Under the pieces are notes generated by a model. That model searched no databases, had not been told where the DNA came from, and worked only from the letters and a program-made list of their open reading frames with translations. Positions 9,693 through 32,885 of a stretch of DNA of 32,885 nucleotides are shown here, in pieces; position 1 is the first letter of the stretch, and each line of letters opens with the position of its first letter. This DNA comes from a virus (Duplodnaviria; Caudoviricetes), in IMG/VR virus record IMGVR_UViG_3300049171_000190, positions 1 to 32,885 of that record; one strand, 5' to 3'. The translations under genes were made by a program, and so were the position numbers.

Positions 9693-11558
9693 AGTGGTTA
9701 AAATCTAACACTTGGTACCCAATCCGCGATACCCGACCGAAGCCAAAGCGGATATTCGGCCAACGTGGCTTCGTGCCAGGACTGGGCATTTGCGACTGTG
9801 ATGTAATCAGTCAGTCCAGGCGCTGACGTTGATAACGCGTCGGCGCTCTGCTTGGAATACTCATTGTGCGACGAGGGTTGGAAGCCCCTGCACTCTCGTG
9901 ACCGGTGGCGGGTTCCATCTGCCCGAGAGAACCTCGGACTTCGGGCTATAGAGCCGCATCGTCAAGTTGAAGCCGCCTTTCGGCGCCGGCAGCCAGTTGG
10001 CCTCCTTGTCCTTGCCTGGGCTCTCGTTCTGGAAATAGAGGTCGAGCGACCCATCCGGGTTGTACTTGAATGGCATCCAACTGCTGACCGCAAAGCGGTC
10101 GAGGCTGTTCGCCACCTGGAAACCATCCGGATCATAGAGCGTGACCGACCAGAAGGCGTTCACTGGCGGCGTCGCGCCCTTCTCGAAGTGCAGCGTGTAT
10201 TTGTTGGCGCCATCGAGCGGCCTGCCGGCTTCGTCACCGAGATTGAGCGGGTAGACCGCATCCTCAGGCAGGTTCGCGCCGAGACCCTGCTGCGTAACGA
10301 TGGCCCGCTTGAGATAGTAGTTCCCATAAACGCCCATCGTATCGGTGTTCATCGACCAATGGTTGGCGACCCGCGCGAGCGTCGGGAGCTTCCACTCCAT
10401 GAGTTTCTGCCCGGCTTCCGGCGCACTTTCGAGGCCCTTCTTCACCGCTGGCGGAGCCTTCTCGATGTCAAAGCTCTGGCCCGGCACGATGCCGATGCGC
10501 TTCATCTGCGCGAGGATCGGTTCATCGGTGAGATGCGGTGGATGGAGCTTCAGCAACTCGGCGGCGTAGGCGAAGTATTGACCCGCCGACATGGTGTCAG
10601 CCTGAACCTTCGGCGCGGTCTTCATGTCAACGCTGGGATCGATCTTCACCTCGACCGGCCTTGGCGCCTTGCCCCAGTCGGATAGCATCGTGACCTTGTA
10701 GCCAGCTTGGATCTTGTGAACCGCGTCATAGTCCGGCGGCCCATCCGTTTTCGTCCGACCGATAACCCAGACATACGGGGTCGGTGCGCTGATGCGCGTC
10801 ATCTCGGCGGGAACGGTCCCGCTCCAACCGGGCGGGGTGACGAGAAAGTTACCCGCCTGCGTCCCGGTCGTGCGCCATCCGGGGGAGGCAAACACATCCG
10901 TCCACATGTCGAGCATTGGCAGGAGGTAGTAGCGTCCGCTGGTGTCCGGCGCGGAGACAACCAGCGGCTCCTTGGTCAGATCGAGCCACGCAACGGAATA
11001 GAGCGTATCGAAGTTGACCCGCACGACGATCTTCAGATCGGCCGGGGGAAACGACGGGACATTCACGAACGTGTTCATCGGGCCTTTGGCGAACTCTTTC
11101 CCGGGTTCGATGTTCGTGGATTGCTTGCGCGTGATGTCCATCGAGATGAGCGGGTAGAAGTAGATGTAGGCATCGACGCCGATGGCGTGCGCCTCCGCCT
11201 CGGTGATTGGTGGCGATGCGCCCTGGGCTATCGCCCCGTGCGCCAGTGTCGACCCTAAGAGAAGGCCCAAAGACAGTGCGATTGCGTTCCTATTCACGTC
11301 GTCCTCCCGCTTCAGTTGAAGTGATTGCGACGCAACAAGCCCCACCTAGTCATACACCCAACTGGGCTAAGCGAGTGTCCTCTTAAGGATAGTGTGCCCT
11401 GACAAGCTGTACCGTGGAGGCGTCAACCTGCGAATGGGAAAAGCCAAGAATGTCCGGTCCAAGTCAGATCCGGTAGTACGGAGAGGATAGGTGAATGTCC
11501 GCTTTCCACCCAAAGTGCAGGCTTGGTGGTCGGTACCAAGCGTTAGAATTTAACCACT
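9693..11558. mobile_element. Putative non-autonomous transposable module bounded by 27-bp terminal inverted repeats, carrying the DUF1254/DUF1214 gene
   Basis: 9693-9719 AGTGGTTAAAATCTAACACTTGGTACC vs reverse complement of 11532-11558 AGTGGTTAAATTCTAACGCTTGGTACC (25/27); second inner IR 9745-9757 vs 11493-11505 (12/13). Confidence 0.7.
9861..11297 (-). CDS. Exported DUF1254/DUF1214 domain protein
   Basis: GTG at 11297 with GGAGG RBS; signal peptide; VRVNFDTLYSVAWLDL, GLGANLPEDAVYP, FWSVTLYD, NWLPAP motifs. Confidence 0.9.
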   Translation of the reverse strand: MNRNAIALSLGLLLGSTLAHGAIAQGASPPITEAEAHAIGVDAYIYFYPLISMDITRKQSTNIEPGKEFAKGPMNTFVNVPSFPPADLKIVVRVNFDTLYSVAWLDLTKEPLVVSAPDTSGRYYLLPMLDMWTDVFASPGWRTTGTQAGNFLVTPPGWSGTVPAEMTRISAPTPYVWVIGRTKTDGPPDYDAVHKIQAGYKVTMLSDWGKAPRPVEVKIDPSVDMKTAPKVQADTMSAGQYFAYAAELLKLHPPHLTDEPILAQMKRIGIVPGQSFDIEKAPPAVKKGLESAPEAGQKLMEWKLPTLARVANHWSMNTDTMGVYGNYYLKRAIVTQQGLGANLPEDAVYPLNLGDEAGRPLDGANKYTLHFEKGATPPVNAFWSVTLYDPDGFQVANSLDRFAVSSWMPFKYNPDGSLDLYFQNESPGKDKEANWLPAPKGGFNLTMRLYSPKSEVLSGRWNPPPVTRVQGLPTLVAQ

Positions 11559-19557: not shown

Positions 19558-19569
19558 GGAGAACAAGAT

Positions 19570-19644
19570 AGTAGGAAATATCCTATTCAGTCAATAGGAT
19601 ATTTCCTACTGTCAAATTCCGGTCAGAAATCGGATAAATCCGAC
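19570..19644. promoter_or_regulatory. OR operator/promoter region
   Basis: AGTAGGAAATATCCTATT (19570-19587) and its exact reverse complement (19593-19610); degenerate third site ATCGGATAAATCCGAC (19629-19644); minus-strand TTGACA at 19610-19615. Confidence 0.85.
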
Positions 19645-20630: not shown

Positions 20631-20977
20631 GAGACACCTCTAAACGCGTTACGGATAAATCTATGTTAGTCAGCAACTCACATATCCGTGTAGCGTTTCA
20701 GCGGAGCAGCAGAATCTTGTTGCCTCTTTGGAGGGATCTAGCCCTCACGTGCATGCAGGCGCGAGCTTGGTCGAGTCCATGCCCAATAACCAGGTGCCGC
20801 CGGCTTAACGCTCAGGTGGGTGGGTGGAGGCAGCGGAGCGCAGAGGTGGTCGAGCCTCCGTTCGGCTAACCTTGTTTCCCATTTGTTGTGGATAGCCCCG
20901 CCGCACGCGAACTGTGATGTTCCGTATTCGTTTTGCTTTTTGCCTTAGCTATATGATGATGGAGCGTGGTTCGTGGA

Positions 20978-22144
20978 ATGAGTCTGTACATGAAGTTTGA
21001 ACCGACATTCTACGAGTTCTTCGCAGGCGGCGGTATGGCGCGCGCTGGTCTTGGGCCATCGTGGAATTGCCTATTCGCCAACGACTTCGACCACAAAAAG
21101 AGCGCCATCTACCGAGCGAACTGGGGCGACGGCGAGATGAAGACAGCCGACGTCAAGTCGCTCAAACCGTCCGACCTTCCGGGCCAGGCTGATCTCGTCT
21201 GGGGCTCATTCCCCTGCCAAGACCTGTCGTTGGCTGGCGGCGGGGCCGGGCTCAAGGGCGAGCGCTCCGGGACGTTCTATCCATTTTGGCACCTGATGAA
21301 GGGGTTGATCAAGGACGGCCGGGCTCCAAAGCTCATTGTCCTAGAGAACGTCTGCGGTACTCTGACATCGCACGGCGGCAAGGACTTCGCGGCGATCTGC
21401 GACACCTTTGTCCAGGCCGGTTACCGCTATGGGGCGATGGTCATCGACGCGGCCCTGTTCGTGCCCCAGTCGCGTCCGCGCCTGTTTGTTATCGGCGTGC
21501 ACGAAGACATCCCTGTGCCAGCCTCCATTTGCGCCGATGACCCCAATAAGCTGTGGCACACCCGAACCCTGCGGACCGCCGTAGAGGGCCTGTCGGCGAA
21601 GGCGAAACGGAAGTGGATCTGGTGGAGTCTGCCCGTGCCAGATAAGCGGAATATTGGCTTCTCCGACCTCGTCGAGGAGAATCCGGACAGCGTGACTTGG
21701 CGCTCGGCCGCGGAGACCAAGCAACTCCTGGCTATGATGAGCGACGTCAACCTGGCTAAAGTGGAGGCAGCCAAGAAGGCCGGCCGGCCGATGGTCGGGA
21801 CGATCTACAAGCGGACCCGTCATGATGAGGATGGGATCAAGGTGCAACGCGCGGAAATCCGGTTTGACGACATCTCCGGCTGCCTCCGCACGCCAGCTGG
21901 CGGCTCGAGCCGCCAGCTGATCCTGGTTGTGAATGGCAAGAACGTCCGCTCGCGCTTAATCTCTTCGCGAGAAACAGCGCGACTTATGGGACTGCCTGAC
22001 GAGTACATCCTACCGAAAAACTACAACGAGGCGTACCACCTAACCGGGGATGGCGTGGCTGTCCCGGTGGTTCGGCACCTTGCAGCTCATCTATTCGAGC
22101 CGATACTGGATGGACAGAGAATCACATCCAGAGCTGCAGCATGA
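20978..22144 (+). CDS. C5 DNA cytosine methyltransferase
   Basis: FFAGGG (I), SFPCQD (IV), ENV (VI), QSRPR (VIII), RETARLMGLP (IX), GDGVAVP (X); start could be 20966, 20978 or 20990. Confidence 0.95.
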   Translation: MSLYMKFEPTFYEFFAGGGMARAGLGPSWNCLFANDFDHKKSAIYRANWGDGEMKTADVKSLKPSDLPGQADLVWGSFPCQDLSLAGGGAGLKGERSGTFYPFWHLMKGLIKDGRAPKLIVLENVCGTLTSHGGKDFAAICDTFVQAGYRYGAMVIDAALFVPQSRPRLFVIGVHEDIPVPASICADDPNKLWHTRTLRTAVEGLSAKAKRKWIWWSLPVPDKRNIGFSDLVEENPDSVTWRSAAETKQLLAMMSDVNLAKVEAAKKAGRPMVGTIYKRTRHDEDGIKVQRAEIRFDDISGCLRTPAGGSSRQLILVVNGKNVRSRLISSRETARLMGLPDEYILPKNYNEAYHLTGDGVAVPVVRHLAAHLFEPILDGQRITSRAAA

Positions 22145-22998
22145 GCGTCATTCCTTGCGAAAAGAATCAAGACTTCCAAGATCAGGTCGAGGAATTCGCT
22201 GAAGTCTTAAAAACTCGCGCGCATCTGCTCGTGAATATGAGCGAAGAAGAAGTGTATGAGACAGGGCTATTTAGAGCTGCAGTCGAGCGAATCCGGGGTC
22301 AATACTCCGCCACAATGAGAGACAAGCGTGACTTCGTATCTCGCATATTAAATTATATGCAGGATAGAAATTTCATTAATGAGTGGGAATCTTCAGGCGA
22401 CGACAACCGTCATGACTATACAGTCTATATGCAAAGCGGCCGTGTTTCGGTAATTGAACTGAAAGGATGCCTAGACGGCAACAACACGAATATCTTCGAA
22501 AGACCACCAAACGCCAATGAGTTCATCATTTGGAGCGTATGCACAAATCTTGGGGCAGACCCGCGTAAGAATGCTTGGTCAGGAATACATACTCGATTAT
22601 CTGCCGATATTGTCTCACGAGCGCAGTTGGTTGACGGTGTTGTTGTTTGGGACTTCATGTGTGGCACATTGGGGCGACCTTGCCCAAAAATTGGGCGCGA
22701 TGGCGACGAGAGGCGGCTAACAACAGTTGGGCCTTACCAAGTTCCTCCTGCGTGCATCTACTTAATGCCTGCAACTATACCCACTCCACGACATAATCCT
22801 TCCCCAACTGCCCAACCCATTCAGGACGTTGAGTTTCTGCATGCACTGCATGCCTGTTTTTTGGGGCGTGATGATGAGCTAAACTATGTAGACTTCGAGG
22901 TTGCATACAGCGGCAGTAACACAGTGCGGAAAACAGTCGTAAGACGAGCAGGAAGAGTTCAAAAAGAGTCAAGACCGACAGCAATTCAACGGACCTAA
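22141..22998 (+). CDS. Putative type II restriction endonuclease (PD-(D/E)xK)
   Basis: RHDYTV...VIELKG motif; translationally coupled between MTase and Vsr; visibly lower GC than the phage backbone. Confidence 0.65.
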   Translation: MSVIPCEKNQDFQDQVEEFAEVLKTRAHLLVNMSEEEVYETGLFRAAVERIRGQYSATMRDKRDFVSRILNYMQDRNFINEWESSGDDNRHDYTVYMQSGRVSVIELKGCLDGNNTNIFERPPNANEFIIWSVCTNLGADPRKNAWSGIHTRLSADIVSRAQLVDGVVVWDFMCGTLGRPCPKIGRDGDERRLTTVGPYQVPPACIYLMPATIPTPRHNPSPTAQPIQDVEFLHALHACFLGRDDELNYVDFEVAYSGSNTVRKTVVRRAGRVQKESRPTAIQRT

Positions 22999-23384
22999 TG
23001 GACCGCTCAAGCATAATGCGACTGGTAGGCTCGGCAAATACAAAGCCTGAGTTGATCGTAAGGCGCATAGTCCATGGGCTGGGATACCGTTATAGACTCC
23101 ACCGCAAAGATCTTCCAGGCACGCCAGACCTTGCTTTCATCTCAAGGAAAAAGGTTGTTTTCGTGCATGGTTGCTTTTGGCACGGGCATGATTGTGGCAG
23201 AGGCAGCCGGATCCCAAAGACAAATACCGAGTATTGGCAAAATAAGGTTGCAAGAAATAAGAAGCGTGACGCTCGCGCGAAAGCTGAGCTTGAAGCCGTC
23301 GGCTGGGAAGTTCTCATCCTTTGGGAATGTGAGCTAAAAGATATTGAGCGAGTAACGAATGTTCTCCAGCGCTTTCTCTCATGA
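22998..23384 (+). CDS. vsr: Very short patch repair endonuclease
   Basis: NTKPELIVRR, DLPGTPD, FVHGCFWHGH, ILWEC motifs. Confidence 0.95.
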   Translation: MDRSSIMRLVGSANTKPELIVRRIVHGLGYRYRLHRKDLPGTPDLAFISRKKVVFVHGCFWHGHDCGRGSRIPKTNTEYWQNKVARNKKRDARAKAELEAVGWEVLILWECELKDIERVTNVLQRFLS

Positions 23385-24400: not shown

Positions 24401-24465
24401 GATCAGTATAATAGGATATTTCCTACTTCTTGGTTGACAGTAGGAAATATCCTATTATACTGATC
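24401..24465 (+). promoter_or_regulatory. OL operators and PL-type promoter
   Basis: 27-bp perfect inverted repeat containing the same 18-bp operator as OR; TTGACA (24434) N16 TATACT (24456). Confidence 0.88.
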
Positions 24466-28102: not shown

Positions 28103-28361
28103 GCACACTCCTGGGCCTTGGACATATGAAGTCCACGAGCTTTCCTCTGGCTTCTCCGGGATCGTTTACGACGCGCAAGGATACTGCGTCGGCACGGACC
28201 ATCTGACCGAAGCAGACGCCCGTCTTATCGCCGCCGCGCCTGAAATGCTGGAGGCTCTTCGCCAAATCGGCCTTCGGTATGGCCCCACAGTGACGCTGCA
28301 AGACTGCATTGATCTAGCTCAGTCCATCATCGCCAAAGCTGAAGGCACATCCCATGACTGA
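28092..28361 (+). CDS. Hypothetical phage protein (HTPGPW...ARLIAAAPEMLEAL type)
   Basis: GGAGG RBS; MSGKHTPGPW...DARLIAAAPEMLEAL. Confidence 0.75.
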   Translation: MSGKHTPGPWTYEVHELSSGFSGIVYDAQGYCVGTDHLTEADARLIAAAPEMLEALRQIGLRYGPTVTLQDCIDLAQSIIAKAEGTSHD

Positions 28362-29322
28362 CACCCCTAGAGTATCCCTAGAGAGGGAAGATGATGTGAC
28401 GTCCGTCGCTATCGCTCCTCCTAAGAACTCAGACCGTGCAGGCTCGTCGGATCGTTGCTCGGCAGACGATGAGCTATTCGACCCGACCAAGCCTGTGCGC
28501 CTGCGCAATGGCTGGAAGGCTCGTATCATCTGCGCGGACCGCCGCGACCCTAGTATGCCTATCGTCTACCTCTATGATGATGGCTCTGGGGAAGGTGTCC
28601 GTACTGCATTCGCAAACGGGGCGGCGACAGAACCGCCAGATGATGAGGATGCCGATCTGTGGGAGCCTAACCCTTACGATCTGCTAAACGTCACCGCCGC
28701 CAGCGTCAGCGATGAGCAGTCGAAGACCGAAGACCGGAACGGGCTGAGCCTGCAAGGTGCCAGCGCGGTCGATTGCGAAGCAGTCGAGACGCCCAATCTC
28801 CCCCAGACAGAGGGCGAATATACGGGGCTGATAGAGTCGTTCGAGCGATGGGCGAAGGCACGACATCTCGACACAACCCTCAAGCTGAAGGGTGAGTGGG
28901 GCGATCACCGCTATTTACATGAGCACATCGAAAGCATGTGGCTCGGCTGGAAGTCATGTGGCGAAGCTCTCCAGCAGAAGAACAAGGAACTGGAGGAGGA
29001 GCTTGCTAAGTCTGAGGACGCGCTTAGCGCACTTCGGATTTTATACGACGCTTTCAAATCCCAACTCGAAGCCCTCCGCACTGATCTGGAGCGGAAGGAC
29101 AAGGCGCTGGAGGAACTGCTTGGCGAGAGCGGCAAAGGCAATCTGACTATCCGCGATCTCTGCTACACGGCGTTCATGAAGGCCAAAGGCACGAATGATG
29201 AGGACGGCGGCCCCACCGATTGGTTCACAGACACGTTGCCGACCATCGAAAAAGGGCTTCAGCGGATGCGCACGGAAGCCGCTCTCTCACCCGAAAAGGA
29301 AGAGGGAGTCTCCCATGACTGA
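28354..29322 (+). CDS. Mosaic multi-domain phage early protein containing structured repeat elements
   Basis: FDPTKPVRLRNGWKARIIC domain, coiled coil; ATGACTGA coupling at both ends. Confidence 0.7.
   Translation: MTDTPRVSLEREDDVTSVAIAPPKNSDRAGSSDRCSADDELFDPTKPVRLRNGWKARIICADRRDPSMPIVYLYDDGSGEGVRTAFANGAATEPPDDEDADLWEPNPYDLLNVTAASVSDEQSKTEDRNGLSLQGASAVDCEAVETPNLPQTEGEYTGLIESFERWAKARHLDTTLKLKGEWGDHRYLHEHIESMWLGWKSCGEALQQKNKELEEELAKSEDALSALRILYDAFKSQLEALRTDLERKDKALEELLGESGKGNLTIRDLCYTAFMKAKGTNDEDGGPTDWFTDTLPTIEKGLQRMRTEAALSPEKEEGVSHD
28387..28465. repeat. Left element A, copy 1
   Basis: Homologous to 29353-29435 (first 22 nt 17/22; shared GAAC, TCA.GACC, GCAGG, GGCAG blocks). Confidence 0.55.
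28703..28794. repeat. Right element B, copy 1 (multi-hairpin)
   Basis: GCGTCAGCGATG...GTC-GAA-GAC...CAGCGCGGTC-GATTGC-GAA-GCAGTC-GAGACGCCC. Confidence 0.75.
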
Positions 29323-30394
29323 GAACCTCAAGCACCGGATAGAGACAGCGGAGAAGAGTATGTGCCCTCCTTCGGCCTCCGGCCTCATCGGGAACAGCGT
29401 CACGACCATCGCAGGTCAGAACCGTCGCGGGGCAGCGTCTCACGCAACCAAGCTGAAGGTCCTGGACCTGTTCTCGGGCATCGGCGGCTTCAGTCTCGGC
29501 CTTGAGCGGACAGACGGGTTTGAGACCGTCGCCTTCTGCGAAATCGAACCCTTCCCCCGTCGTGTCCTCGCAAAGCACTGGCCCAATGTCCCGATCTACG
29601 AAGATGTCCGCGAACTCACAGCCGAGCGCCTGGCAGCAGACGGAATTTCCGTTGATGTCATCTGCGGGGGCTTCCCCTGTCAGGACATCAGCCTCGCCGG
29701 CAAAGGTGCTGGACTTGAAGGCGAGCGCAGCGGCCTATGGTCTGAGATCGCCCGACTTACTCGCGAGCTGGGACCGCGATACATCATCGTGGAGAACGTC
29801 TCAGCACTGCTTGGTCGAGGGCTTGGCCAAGTTCTCGGAGACCTGGCCGAGATCGGGTACGATGCGGAGTGGCACTGCATACCGGCTGCCGCCCTTGGCG
29901 CCCCTCACAGACGAGATCGCTTCTGGCTTGTGGCCTACCCCAACGCTGCCGAACGGTGGCCGGTCGGTGAAGCACGTCAACGAGTGGCGTGGTCGGAGTG
30001 CCTATCACAATGGCAAGAAGGTTCAGGTGGATCTGAATCAAGCCGTGAAGATGTGGCCGACACCAGTGGCGCGGGATTGGAAAGCCCCCGGTCGGAGCAG
30101 GATGGAGCGGACAGGCTCGAAAGCTGGCGAGTGCCTTCCTCAAGTGGTTGGTGGCTCTCTGAACCCGACGTGGGTCGAGTGGCTCATGGGGTTCCCGCTC
30201 GAGTGGACCGACTTAAAGGGCTCGGCAATGCCGTCGTCCCGCAAATCCCGGAAATGATCGGTCGCGCCATTCTCGCGGCCCGCGTCAGCGATGGCGATCC
30301 GAAGGACCGAGACCTTGGGCTCGGGGGCTTTAGCCCTGTCAGCGCGATCTGCGAAGCAGAGACGCCCTCCCGCCCCACTCCCATTCAGGAATAG
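29315..30394 (+). CDS. C5 DNA methyltransferase, alpha polypeptide (motifs I-VIII and X)
   Basis: DLFSGIGG, GGFPCQD, ENV, HRRDR, GLGNAVVP; no motif IX in this frame. Confidence 0.9.
   Translation: MTENLKHRIETAEKSMCPPSASGLIGNSVTTIAGQNRRGAASHATKLKVLDLFSGIGGFSLGLERTDGFETVAFCEIEPFPRRVLAKHWPNVPIYEDVRELTAERLAADGISVDVICGGFPCQDISLAGKGAGLEGERSGLWSEIARLTRELGPRYIIVENVSALLGRGLGQVLGDLAEIGYDAEWHCIPAAALGAPHRRDRFWLVAYPNAAERWPVGEARQRVAWSECLSQWQEGSGGSESSREDVADTSGAGLESPRSEQDGADRLESWRVPSSSGWWLSEPDVGRVAHGVPARVDRLKGLGNAVVPQIPEMIGRAILAARVSDGDPKDRDLGLGGFSPVSAICEAETPSRPTPIQE
29353..29435. repeat. Left element A, copy 2
   Basis: Homologous to 28387-28465; GGCC-TCC-GGCC hairpin. Confidence 0.55.
29502..30257 (+). CDS. 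Overlapping +1-frame beta polypeptide of the C5 MTase (motif IX and probable TRD)
   Basis: Open for 251 codons; LWPTP/MWPTP repeats and LNPTWVEWLMGFPLEWT; true start uncertain. Confidence 0.75.
   Translation: MSGQTGLRPSPSAKSNPSPVVSSQSTGPMSRSTKMSANSQPSAWQQTEFPLMSSAGASPVRTSASPAKVLDLKASAAAYGLRSPDLLASWDRDTSSWRTSQHCLVEGLAKFSETWPRSGTMRSGTAYRLPPLAPLTDEIASGLWPTPTLPNGGRSVKHVNEWRGRSAYHNGKKVQVDLNQAVKMWPTPVARDWKAPGRSRMERTGSKAGECLPQVVGGSLNPTWVEWLMGFPLEWTDLKGSAMPSSRKSRK
30282..30367. repeat. Right element B, copy 2 (multi-hairpin)
   Basis: GCGTCAGCGATG...TCC-GAA-GGA...CAGCGCGATC-TGC-GAA-GCA-GAGACGCCC. Confidence 0.75.
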
Positions 30395-30494
30395 GGGGAA
30401 GCATGGGACAGGCTAACCCCTTGATCCTCCCTGTTTCGCTTTCCCCGACCGAACCCAAGTCGGCATTGACTAAGCTGATGGAGTATTGCTCACG

Positions 30495-30770
30495 ATGAGC
30501 GCCGTGCCTTCGCCCTACCTGTCCAAAGCCTCACTGGCCCGGGCCCTCGAAATCAGCGAGAGCACTGTTGATGAGCTTGTGCGGCGAGGCGTTCTGCCAA
30601 GACCAGCCCGCTTGTCATCGGGCTGCGTCCGGTGGCGCTGGGAGATGGTTGACTATGCTCTTGCATCCATGATCCCCGGCAGCAATGCTGCGGCTCAGGA
30701 CGATGCAGATGCGGGAGTGGAACTTGTCATCCAAGCGGCGAAGGAGCGTCGGCGTGGTCGAACTGCCTAA
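30495..30770 (+). CDS. AlpA-like excisionase
   Basis: LSKASLARALEISESTVDELVRRGVLPRP...VRWRW; immediately upstream of and overlapping the integrase. Confidence 0.85.
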   Translation: MSAVPSPYLSKASLARALEISESTVDELVRRGVLPRPARLSSGCVRWRWEMVDYALASMIPGSNAAAQDDADAGVELVIQAAKERRRGRTA

Positions 30771-31791
30771 AGGCGTTCACCGCGTCGTGTCGCGCGGGAA
30801 GGAGTACTATTACTGGCACCCGGGGAGAGGCACACAGAACCCGGGAGAGCGCATCAGGCTGCCGAACGACCCGACAGACCCGGGGTTCTGGGTCGAGTTG
30901 CGAGCGGCCCAAGGCGTCACCAGTAAGCAGCCGGAGATTGTCACGGTCGCGGCAGTGGTGGACCTTTATGAGACTTCCTCCAAATTCCTGAAACTGGCCG
31001 AGGGCTCGAAGGAGCAATACCGGAGGCAGTTCAAGCTTTTGCGGGCTGGGCTGGGCACAACGGCGGCTGAGAAGATCAAGCCGAGCCACATTCGCCGGAT
31101 CGTGGAAGGAATGGCTGATACGCCAAGCGCGGCGAACAACTTCCTGCGGGCTATGCGGGCGCTGTCGTCATGGGGCGTCGTCCATGACCACTTCGCCATG
31201 TCCATCACGGACGGGGTGGAGCCGTTCGAGACGGACGGCGGGCACATGCCCTGGACGGATGAGCAGATTGCGGCGGCGCACGAGCATCTGACGGGCGCGA
31301 TGAGGCGGGGGATTTTGCTGGGGCTTTATACCGGGCAGCGTGGCTCTGATATCGTGCGCATGGGCTGGACCACGCTTGATCGCAGCGGCTTCCGCGTCAA
31401 GCAAAAGAAGACCGGCGTGTGGGTCTATTGCCCTGTTGTCGATGAGTTGGCTGCGGAGATGGCGACGTGGGAGAAAGCGCCTGGGCCGTTCGTGCGCCAG
31501 GAGAGCGGCAAGCCTTATACCCGCAAGCTGTTCTCGAAGCACTTTGCGGAGGTCCGTGACAACATCCCGGCATTGGCCGGGGTCACCATCCATGGGCTGC
31601 GTTCAACAGCCGTGGTAAGGCTGCGGAGAGCCGGACTGAAGACGGCACAGATCCAGGACGTTGTGGGATTGAGCCTGTCGATGATTGAGCGCTACAGCCG
31701 CTTTGCCGATCAGGAGGAAAGCGCTCAGGCCGCGCTCATCGCACTGGCCGAGCATCGCAAGCGGAAACAGGAACAGAACACCAACCTGTAA
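30754..31791 (+). CDS. int: Tyrosine integrase
   Basis: TGQR (R), KQKKT (K), HGLR (HxxR), RY (Y); AAGGAG RBS and GTG at 30754. Confidence 0.95.
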   Translation: MVELPKGVHRVVSRGKEYYYWHPGRGTQNPGERIRLPNDPTDPGFWVELRAAQGVTSKQPEIVTVAAVVDLYETSSKFLKLAEGSKEQYRRQFKLLRAGLGTTAAEKIKPSHIRRIVEGMADTPSAANNFLRAMRALSSWGVVHDHFAMSITDGVEPFETDGGHMPWTDEQIAAAHEHLTGAMRRGILLGLYTGQRGSDIVRMGWTTLDRSGFRVKQKKTGVWVYCPVVDELAAEMATWEKAPGPFVRQESGKPYTRKLFSKHFAEVRDNIPALAGVTIHGLRSTAVVRLRRAGLKTAQIQDVVGLSLSMIERYSRFADQEESAQAALIALAEHRKRKQEQNTNL

Positions 31792-32885
31792 AACAGTTGT
31801 ACAACATGGGCCAAAAAACCTTGTGGATTAAGGCCGGGGCCGAAATCGCAGAGTTCATCTTCGAGTTCCGGCAACGCACCCACATGGCGCACGCGGCCTT
31901 GCGCGTAGAGCACGGAGACCGGCTCGGCGCGCAGATACTTGCCGCGCGTGGCGCGTACGCTCACCACGGGCACAGCCGGATCCACCTCGCGGATGACGCT
32001 TGTCGCCATCTCGCCGCCCTGGTTCGTCTCGACGATCAGCGCATCGGCCTGGAGGCGACGATAGAGCGCGACCGCCTTCGCCGCCCATTCCGGCGGCTTG
32101 AGGCCTGACGCGGAGGAATCCTCCAGCACATAGGCGATGCCGCCCTCATCGATTCCGGCGGCGACGATGCCACAGGCGTCAGCTCGCTTCGATGAAGTCG
32201 CGGGCGGATCGACCGCGACCACGATGCGCATGAGCGGCGGGGCGGCCTCTAGCCTGCATGCCTCGATCATATCGCGTGTCCAGAGCGCGTCGGCACGGTC
32301 CTCGATGATGTCGCCGTCGAGTTCCTGCCGTCCCAGCCGCGTGCCGGAATAGCGCCCGACCACCGTCTCCAAGAACGCTGGCGCAAGATTGGCGGCATTG
32401 TCGGATGTTCTGGCGCGGGAGACTGCGACGGAGGGATCTGCGAGAAAGCGCTTCAGAAGCGGAATGGGCCTTGGCGTCGTCGTCACCATCTGGCGTGGAT
32501 GCTGGCCGAGGCGCAGCCCGAATTGCAGCATGTCCCAGGTTTCCTCCACGTGCTTCCATTTCGCGAGTTCGTCCGCCCAGGCGGCCTCGAATTGCGGCCC
32601 GCGCAGAGAGTCCGGATCCTCGGCAGAGAATACGTAAGCCACCGCGCCGTTCGGCCATTCGAGCTTGCGCAACGACGGCGACCAGGTGGGGCGCTCGTGA
32701 CGCGCGTGGACTGCCAGGATTCCGGCGGGCCCTTCGATCATCACATTGCGCGCATCGGCAAAGGTTTCGCCGATCAACGCAATGCGCCGATGTGGCGCGT
32801 CCGCGAAATCGGGTTCGCCCAGGGCGATGCCGCGCACCCATTCGGATCCGGTGCGGGTTTTGCCCGCCCCTCGCCCTCCCAGCAT
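31725..32885 (-). pseudogene. Host GTA (RcGTA g2-like) large terminase, interrupted near its C-terminus by the prophage; 5' end outside the window
   Basis: GGRGAGKT, LRGPQF, WADELAKW, LQFGLRLG, TTTPRP, VAVDPP, ETNQGG, RAEPV, LEDELCDF motifs; the expected SPDRxDALVWA is absent. Confidence 0.85.
31787..31840. other. Prophage attachment junction with putative arm-type sites
   Basis: TGTAAAACA (31787) and TGTACAACA (31798) direct repeats; terminase homology stops at about 31830. Confidence 0.7.

Follow-up and report, generated by a model that had tools for sequence, protein, structure and literature searches.

Folded single-strand DNA elements in facing pairs bracket exchangeable gene cassettes in tailed phages

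Introduction

Short conserved blocks at which accessory genes are exchanged are familiar from tailed phages, the lambdoid boundary sequences and T4-type regulatory cassettes being promoter or terminator homologies in direct orientation. Recognition of hairpins in single-stranded DNA (ssDNA) is likewise familiar from REP/REPIN sequences with RAYT and from the ends of IS200/IS605, and REPINs carry inverted doublets. Here, we examine two families of folded elements, A and B, that bracket two gene cassettes in a tailed-phage provirus, IMG/VR record IMGVR_UViG_3300049171_000190, whose whole analyzed stretch of 32,885 bases is called the window. Unlike the lambdoid and T4-type blocks, these elements are strand-specific folds with a one-base junction, and B departs from REP/RAYT and IS200/IS605 sequences by its multi-branch 87-nt fold, its whole-gene cargo, and the lack of a Y1 transposase in 49 of 50 records. 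The elements are real and widespread, and the cassette is defined by the facing geometry of its ends rather than by an A on the left and a B on the right.

Integron attC sites, and likewise the DUF1874 motif (Weinberg et al. 2017, PMC5737381, available text), are also folded ssDNA sites between variable genes. Each integron cassette has a single attC site, which is intergenic, repeated in direct orientation, and dependent on IntI, whereas the A and B elements form inverted pairs, are often translated, share no common recombinase, and have no Rfam match. With primosome assembly (pas) and ssi sites we group the G4-type primase sites, which we take to be comparable. In phiX174 pas and in ColE1 ssiA and ssiB, a folded ssDNA signal lies on the strand to be copied and is read by the host (PMC5778457 and PMC3167613, available text), an arrangement like that proposed here. 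In one gokushovirus, the genome position of B is also the same. The phiX174 and ColE1 stretches contain GNA mini-hairpins as well, with the pas and ssi positions placed where we presume them to be. Among the properties of such sites, B has the stable branched fold and, with the transferred and virion strands deduced from gene orientation, the location on ssDNA strands; A had no match on plasmids. The elements have a larger, four-way-junction fold, and no report was found of pas or ssi use in facing pairs inside tailed-phage open reading frames (ORFs). Because there is no homology match, the elements are not filed as members of this group, only as working alike.

The Frpo/ssiD promoters of F and ColIb resemble B in lying on the transferred strand in the leading region, and B adjoins them in F; it lies outside the listed ssiD sequence, lacks a -10/-35 stem, and measures about 87 nt versus 330-350 nt. 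The IncN CUP and ERS repeats were reportedly described by Delver and Belogurov in 1997, and the B copies of plasmid R46 may belong to them. Three such copies lie in the CUP-controlled leading region of R46 (CUP: PMC5371602), and no structure, priming role, or phage occurrence of these repeats was found stated in the available text of that source. Neither the element nor such cassettes were found described in the literature within reach, which did not include older subscription papers or the Weinberg 2017 supplement, and an earlier naming is possible. Taken by itself, the element would be one more family, a new one, in a class of signals already known; facing, translated, swappable cassette ends match no system that we can name.

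Results

Two translated cassettes in the window

The sequence-only reading had described two cargos, each preceded by an element A, followed by an element B, and translated through both, with the A and B elements folding on opposite strands. Models of the two families place A1 and A2 on the minus strand and B1 and B2 on the plus strand, and both host ORFs are open throughout. All four elements stood, with their limits refined to the coordinates given here.

28350-28361, plus strand: overlapping stop/start junction TCCCATGACTGA at the start of ORF1 (from the sequence).
28354-29322, plus strand: ORF1, 322 aa, with a leader, the A1 peptide, cargo 1, the B1 peptide, and further domains (ORF translation).
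28391-28464, minus strand: A1, A family, tandem-GA arm with a GC-GATA-GC hairpin, partly decayed (27.8 bits, E 3e-5, window outside training).
28465-28702, plus strand: cargo 1 (FDPTKPV... domain; about 79 codons), not assigned to any family.
28703-28795, plus strand: B1, B-family cloverleaf with a three-way and a four-way junction and GNA loops (alignment and B model).
29311-29322, plus strand: overlapping stop/start junction TCCCATGACTGA at the start of ORF2 (from the sequence).
29315-30394, plus strand: ORF2, 359 aa, with a leader, the A2 peptide, a C5-methyltransferase, and the B2 peptide (ORF translation, profile matches).
29357-29442, minus strand: A2, A family, arm with a GGCC-GGA-GGCC hairpin (32.8 bits, E 2e-6).
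29443-30281, plus strand: cargo 2, a whole C5-methyltransferase minus its own start and last few codons (profile match, relatives).
30282-30368, plus strand: B2, B-family cloverleaf (alignment and B model).
29356-30368, no strand: slot from the A2 outer edge to the B2 outer edge that holds 375 other letters in a second contig of run X1.
30486-31791, plus strand: end of the prophage, with an excisionase-like gene and a tyrosine integrase; context, not element-specific.

Cargo 2 had been named a C5-methyltransferase, and it matches PF00145 (E 4e-41). In three other phages, element-free genes for this methyltransferase begin with their own ATG at the A2 join point and stop about five codons past the B2 join point. 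Cargo 1 had no match in curated Pfam or PHROG, and searches found no relatives of it. The stop/start junction is identical at 28350 and 29311, as had been pointed out; since CCCATGAC occurs six times on the plus strand of the window, it is not special. Inside the methyltransferase cargo, a 251-aa ORF in the +1 frame (29502-30257) matches phrog_1008 (E 3e-29) and is an overprinted gene travelling with the cassette.

Structure of the B family

Searches with a strict B pattern resulted in 21 viral stretches and with a core pattern in at least 123 (about 140 estimated). In genomes, the core pattern gave at least 127 stretches (about 570 estimated), with chance matches visible among them, and a looser pattern returned mostly chance matches. 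The resulting alignment holds 82 copies, drawn from a set of 97 plus B2. In it, B is a cloverleaf of about 87 nt whose outer stem, GCGNN/N'N'CGC, closes a three-way junction; an inner stem carrying A-G and tandem GA mismatches follows, and then a four-way junction with three hairpins. Pairing is present in 87.8% of the alignment cells, a level reached in 0 of 500 shuffles, and two-sided changes occur at 22 of the 30 pairs, with kinship among the copies inflating the covariation scores. The filter for copies imposed pair 8:81 and the flanking motifs, and the search pattern fixed the third loop; pair 12:77, which the filter did not impose, is formed in 82/82 copies (GC 45, CG 20, TA 17). The d(GNA) loops are especially stable in DNA, and C(GNA)G triloops occupy the pattern-free hairpins 2 and 4 in 50 and 51 of the 82 copies, respectively. 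Covariation and loops together bear out the ssDNA-type structure proposed from the window. A reading of B as RNA was rejected, as the loops are GNA triloops, the stems pair only as triloops, and cUNCGg was found in no copy. A B model that had both window copies in its training set gives B1 71 bits and B2 72 bits.

G is scarce at positions -1 and -2 of the element (2% and 6%; n = 156), so the 3' CC(A) tail stays unpaired. Repeated scans of Rfam 15 found no family reaching its gathering score at the A or B elements, in agreement with the earlier statement that they belong to no named family. The conserved internal loops and four-way junction, where a simple hairpin would otherwise serve, imply that the fold is read by a protein.

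The A family

The possibility that A is B in reverse complement was rejected for the window, where the B model has no match at A1 or A2; inverted B is used as the left end by many other phages. The folding strand of A reads CCC-GA-N-GA-hairpin-GA-N'-G-GA-GGG, with the pair N:N' formed in 26 of 26 copies (GC 16, TA 6, CG 4), and no convincing pairing was found in the 5' half. On a model built without the window, A2 and A1 are its top two matches, both on the minus strand, and the next scores 12.6 bits; two of the three outer pairs of the A1 arm are lost, which weakens A1. A is rarer than B, with 17 viral stretches, two of them judged to be chance, and a metagenome scan resulted in 17 stretches, about three of them real. 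One phage early region (L228, 1977-4517) holds seven A copies in mostly alternating orientation, in a record with no B.

Arrangement in tailed phages

Both models were run on 27 near-whole phage records that had been picked for having elements, and the counts therefore show arrangement, not prevalence. These records contain 182 elements, at most 19 per genome and 94 of them on the plus strand. Inward-facing neighbours (minus then plus) within 1.3 kb number 59, compared with a shuffled mean of 28.1 and a maximum of 43 in 5000 shuffles; the median gap is 413 bp, and when its own strand is read, each element of a facing pair is found on the 3' side of the cargo. Fifty-two of the pairs consist of B and inverted B, four of A and inverted A, and three are mixed, which does not support the earlier view that a cassette needs an A as its left end and a B as its right end. 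In pattern-selected loci, neighbouring B copies are on opposite strands in 89 of 108 cases. The cargo, 130-1200 bp in size, often starts near an apparent natural gene start. In 27 of 53 pairs, a single open frame runs from one element through the cargo and the other element; on their reverse strand, the elements average 2.1 stop-free frames.

In a cultured phage, Sphingopyxis phage VSN-002 (L556, 7202-14653), four B copies were found in the 20 kb searched, and gene_19 is almost entirely a cassette of inverted B, cargo, and B, downstream of Erf, YqaJ, DUF968, and NinB genes. At four AT-richer phage or prophage loci (L133, L154, L168, and L295), the searched stretch has a single B followed by an A-rich run; two of these loci are in Bacteroidota-binned assemblies.

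Exchange of cargo

Cargo had been expected to vary between relatives, and it does so with sharp junctions. B is 98-100% identical in four phages that have three different cargos between them, each joined to the first G of B within 0-2 nt. The blocks common to these phages extend beyond B for about 33 nt, up to the next ATG, and the genes differ from there on. The inner edge of A is equally sharp. Cores are at least 90% alike in 28 phage pairs, and 22 of these pairs, some of which may simply be distant, have no common 5' flank.

In run X1, a possible source of the window, a single contig spans each cassette, which means that neither arose by joining contigs in assembly. A further contig of the run (depth 23.9 vs 16) retains 29319-29355 and 30369-30499, and in it 375 other letters replace positions 29356-30368, a span bounded by the outer edges of A2 and B2. 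The suggested comparison of relatives for swapped or empty sites showed swapped cargo and this one edge-to-edge cassette replacement. The 34-nt piece 29315-29348 is a common node (depth 35) of run X1 contigs with depths of 22.7, 16, and 23.9, and these depths suggest that the window could join two co-existing prophage variants there, between the cassettes.

Occurrence on conjugative elements and ssDNA phages

A BLAST search with a B copy of the type found on integrative and conjugative elements (ICEs) matched 1633 plasmid records, 1431 of them predicted to be conjugative, mostly through partial matches and by BLAST alone. With the B model, two copies were found on the F plasmid (58090-58172 and 63478-63560, in 40 of 99 kb searched; L376 28091-28173 and 33479-33561 in stretch coordinates), three on R46, and five in 18 kb of pKL53-S. 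Each of these sets lies on one strand, which is the template strand of the leading-region genes (ssb, psiB, ardA, ccg) and, judging from the oriT position and the available part of Samuel et al. 2024 (PMC11541004), would be the transferred strand. The F copies begin about 90 nt past the ssiD/Frpo sequence of Supplementary Table 2 of that paper, and three of its Frpo* windows include or end in B, without comment in the part available. In Frpo*4 and Frpo*5 of the same table, the place that B takes in Frpo*2 and Frpo*6 is occupied by another hairpin-rich motif, starting GCCATCAGACCCTAGCC, which may be a third family that serves this function.

Fifty-four bacterial-genome loci were chosen by eye from 80 with flanks, and at the ICE-like loci with several copies, all copies are on one strand (26/26). 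DUF932, DUF2958, ParB, or SSB genes are present in 6 of the 10 loci scanned, with B on the template strand in all six. The sequence common to copies at these loci lies 5' of the element and ends at its 3' foot in 16 of 23 copy pairs.

Among ssDNA phages, Gokushovirus KT264808 has one intergenic B (50.5 bits); on the coding strand, it directly follows the capsid gene and separates VP1 from VP2, a position that presumably corresponds to the F-G intergenic hairpin region of phiX174. The complementary strand of phiX174 is primed at a hairpin read by PriA (PMC5778457, available text), and an intergenic microvirus B is a candidate complementary-strand origin. The microvirus copies are at L555 1603-1678 and L557 2712-2766; a third 4-kb record with a B copy is not a microvirus by tblastn. 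B is found on strands that exist single-stranded, these being, from gene orientation, the putative transferred strands and virion strands. The predicted co-dependence of A and B fails here, as B is without a partner both in conjugative elements, where it forms same-strand arrays, and in ssDNA phages, where it is a single copy. The older job of the element is likely that of a single-strand replication signal.

Search for a partner enzyme

A cognate recombinase, reported as lacking next to the cassettes, was also not found among element-rich phage records. No protein cluster occurs in more than 16 of 28 element-bearing records; annealases are common but variable, and a phage integrase cluster is present in 16/28 by protein clustering. 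Y1_Tnp was found in cis in 1 of 50 element-rich phage records, though a host enzyme may act in trans, and reverse transcriptase (RVT_1) in 0/50, without the linkage expected of a retron or a diversity-generating retroelement. A neighbouring HNH nuclease was rejected as a partner, as B lies within 8 kb in only 9 of 80 HNH loci, several being training loci. Junctions have no target motif beyond the G depletion (at most 0.47 bits) and no fixed tetranucleotide. Since B-bearing hosts are so diverse, spanning Enterobacteria, alphaproteobacteria, and Bacteroidota-binned contigs, a conserved host reader of the elements is the simplest inference.

Genomic context of the cassettes

The provirus record is estimated to be 58% complete and runs from head genes through a replication region, a repressor, and the early accessory run (26.4-30.4 kb) to the excisionase-like gene and the tyrosine integrase, after which a terminase-like host gene follows. 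As elements like those of the closest element-bearing relatives occur in Microvirga assemblies, the host appears to be alphaproteobacterial. The prophage end abuts the minus-strand terminase-like gene (Terminase_6N/6C, 31725-32885), which is probably the host's gene-transfer-agent terminase, serving as the integration site. Inverted 21-27-nt repeats, two pairs sharing AATAGGATATTTCCTACT, are present at 19567-19613 and 24401-24465 and are likely repressor operators; between them lies a module of a C5-methyltransferase, phrog_31486, and Vsr (20966-23384). A 494-aa ORF without a PHROG match is flanked by a 27-nt inverted repeat (93%; 9693-9719 and 11532-11558), the whole possibly being an inserted element.

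Discussion

We give an even chance to the reading that the elements are host-read single-strand priming signals which, in facing pairs, make the enclosed gene a copyable, exchangeable cassette. B is probably a DNA-priming site reused as a cassette end, because it also occurs on single strands of F, transferred plasmids, and ssDNA phages. The reader of the fold would be a protein conserved among hosts (PriA primosome or primase), acting at times when early-region DNA may be single-stranded, during resection, in D-loops, or during replication. Priming at both elements would start copies at the outer edges, and the strands would be copied convergently, much as in the polymerase chain reaction (PCR), giving a unit with boundaries as in the run X1 replacement. 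General annealing or repair enzymes, from phage or host, could insert such pieces into related genomes, with selection retaining in-frame fusions. New cargo may join at the 5' base of the element once the 5' tail is trimmed to the stem, by ligation or template switching; this exact first joining is the weakest step. A broader proposal is that tailed phages took over a universal ssDNA origin, one that also serves F-like plasmids, ICEs, and some microviruses, and arranged its copies face to face. Host primosomes would then copy single genes as PCR-like amplicons for exchange between genomes, without a recombinase, and the origin would also be the rifampicin-resistant conjugative priming signal. 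This proposal is tentative, and we think it more probably wrong than right.

Several observations weigh against the priming reading. The proposed function is deduced from sequence. Single copies fold no better than their shuffles (z -0.7 to +2.1), so the structure claim rests on covariation. Neither phiX174 nor ColE1, with their known PriA sites, gave a match with the B or A model. No A was matched in the plasmid search or in four plasmid stretches, and priming by A is argued by analogy with B. The ssDNA-phage sample of three genomes is thin, and one of them, Microviridae MH572438, has a single partial intergenic B (model 8-65, 32.3 bits, coding strand) in the gap between scaffold and Rep genes. 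Among the 182 phage elements, 64 have no facing partner within 1.3 kb, and 30 back-to-back pairs occur within that distance. The 375 replacing letters are known by length alone, and run X1 is maybe the window's own source. Priming also accounts better for sharp outer edges than for sharp inner ones.

At the inner join, two rival accounts are stronger. The elements could be ends for a strand-transfer enzyme of HUH/Y1, RAYT-like, or integron-like type, acting in trans, by which the 3'-OH of a target is linked on ssDNA to the 5' base of the element; we consider this unlikely. Joins at the exact 5' base fit HUH chemistry, the inner junctions are sharp, and an IS200-like gene lies near a copy at one bacterial locus (L273). 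The rarity of Y1_Tnp, the lack of RVT_1 and of any cluster in more than 16/28 records, and a target motif limited to G depletion argue against such an enzyme, as do two unrelated folds interchangeable as ends and the single intergenic microvirus copy, which would be useless as a transposon end. Ranked below this, and improbable, is the account in which the elements are resection stops: a break in the cargo leaves 5'-ended strands whose folds halt helicase-nucleases, and once trimmed back to the stem these strands take up a new fragment by end joining, with no priming. The geometry (5' ends inward) and the sharp inner junctions follow from it directly, the cargo size is in its favour, and an F ssDNA hairpin is reported to stall DNA synthesis (bioRxiv 10.64898/2026.01.09.698686, available text). 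A simple hairpin would be enough for such a stop, however, whereas the conserved loops and four-way junction imply protein recognition, and the single ssDNA-phage copy and the 3'-edge ends in ICE-like loci are left unexplained.

It is quite improbable that the elements belong, as accessory parts, to single-strand promoters or other expression signals and are sites at which ordinary homologous exchange creates the mosaicism. The F copies do lie about 90 nt past ssiD/Frpo, and three Frpo* windows end in the element, but the fold has no AT-rich -10/-35 stem, phage copies sit inside ORFs on both strands about equally, and homology alone makes no first join of cargo and element at one fixed base. 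The least probable account, in our view very unlikely, is that of plain boundary or linker homology blocks for Red-like recombination with incidental structure. The common sequence of about 33 nt from B to the next ATG, with diverging genes beyond, and the annealases common in these phages would suit it; compensatory changes throughout B, strand-specific loops, non-random orientation, and the same fold on plasmids and microviruses would not.

Conclusions

A conserved, unnamed ssDNA structure is present on F, IncN, and many conjugative elements. In the available text of Fraikin et al. (bioRxiv 10.64898/2026.01.09.698686), conversion of F is rifampicin-resistant and host-driven, no priming site is named, and priming of the incoming strand under blocked transcription is still open; B is a concrete candidate for that priming. 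The element family and the cassette geometry hold even if the amplicon model fails. Turnover of anti-defence and methylase genes makes the early regions of tailed phages mosaic on a fine scale, and the facing elements would give this pattern a specific cause that can be put to the test.

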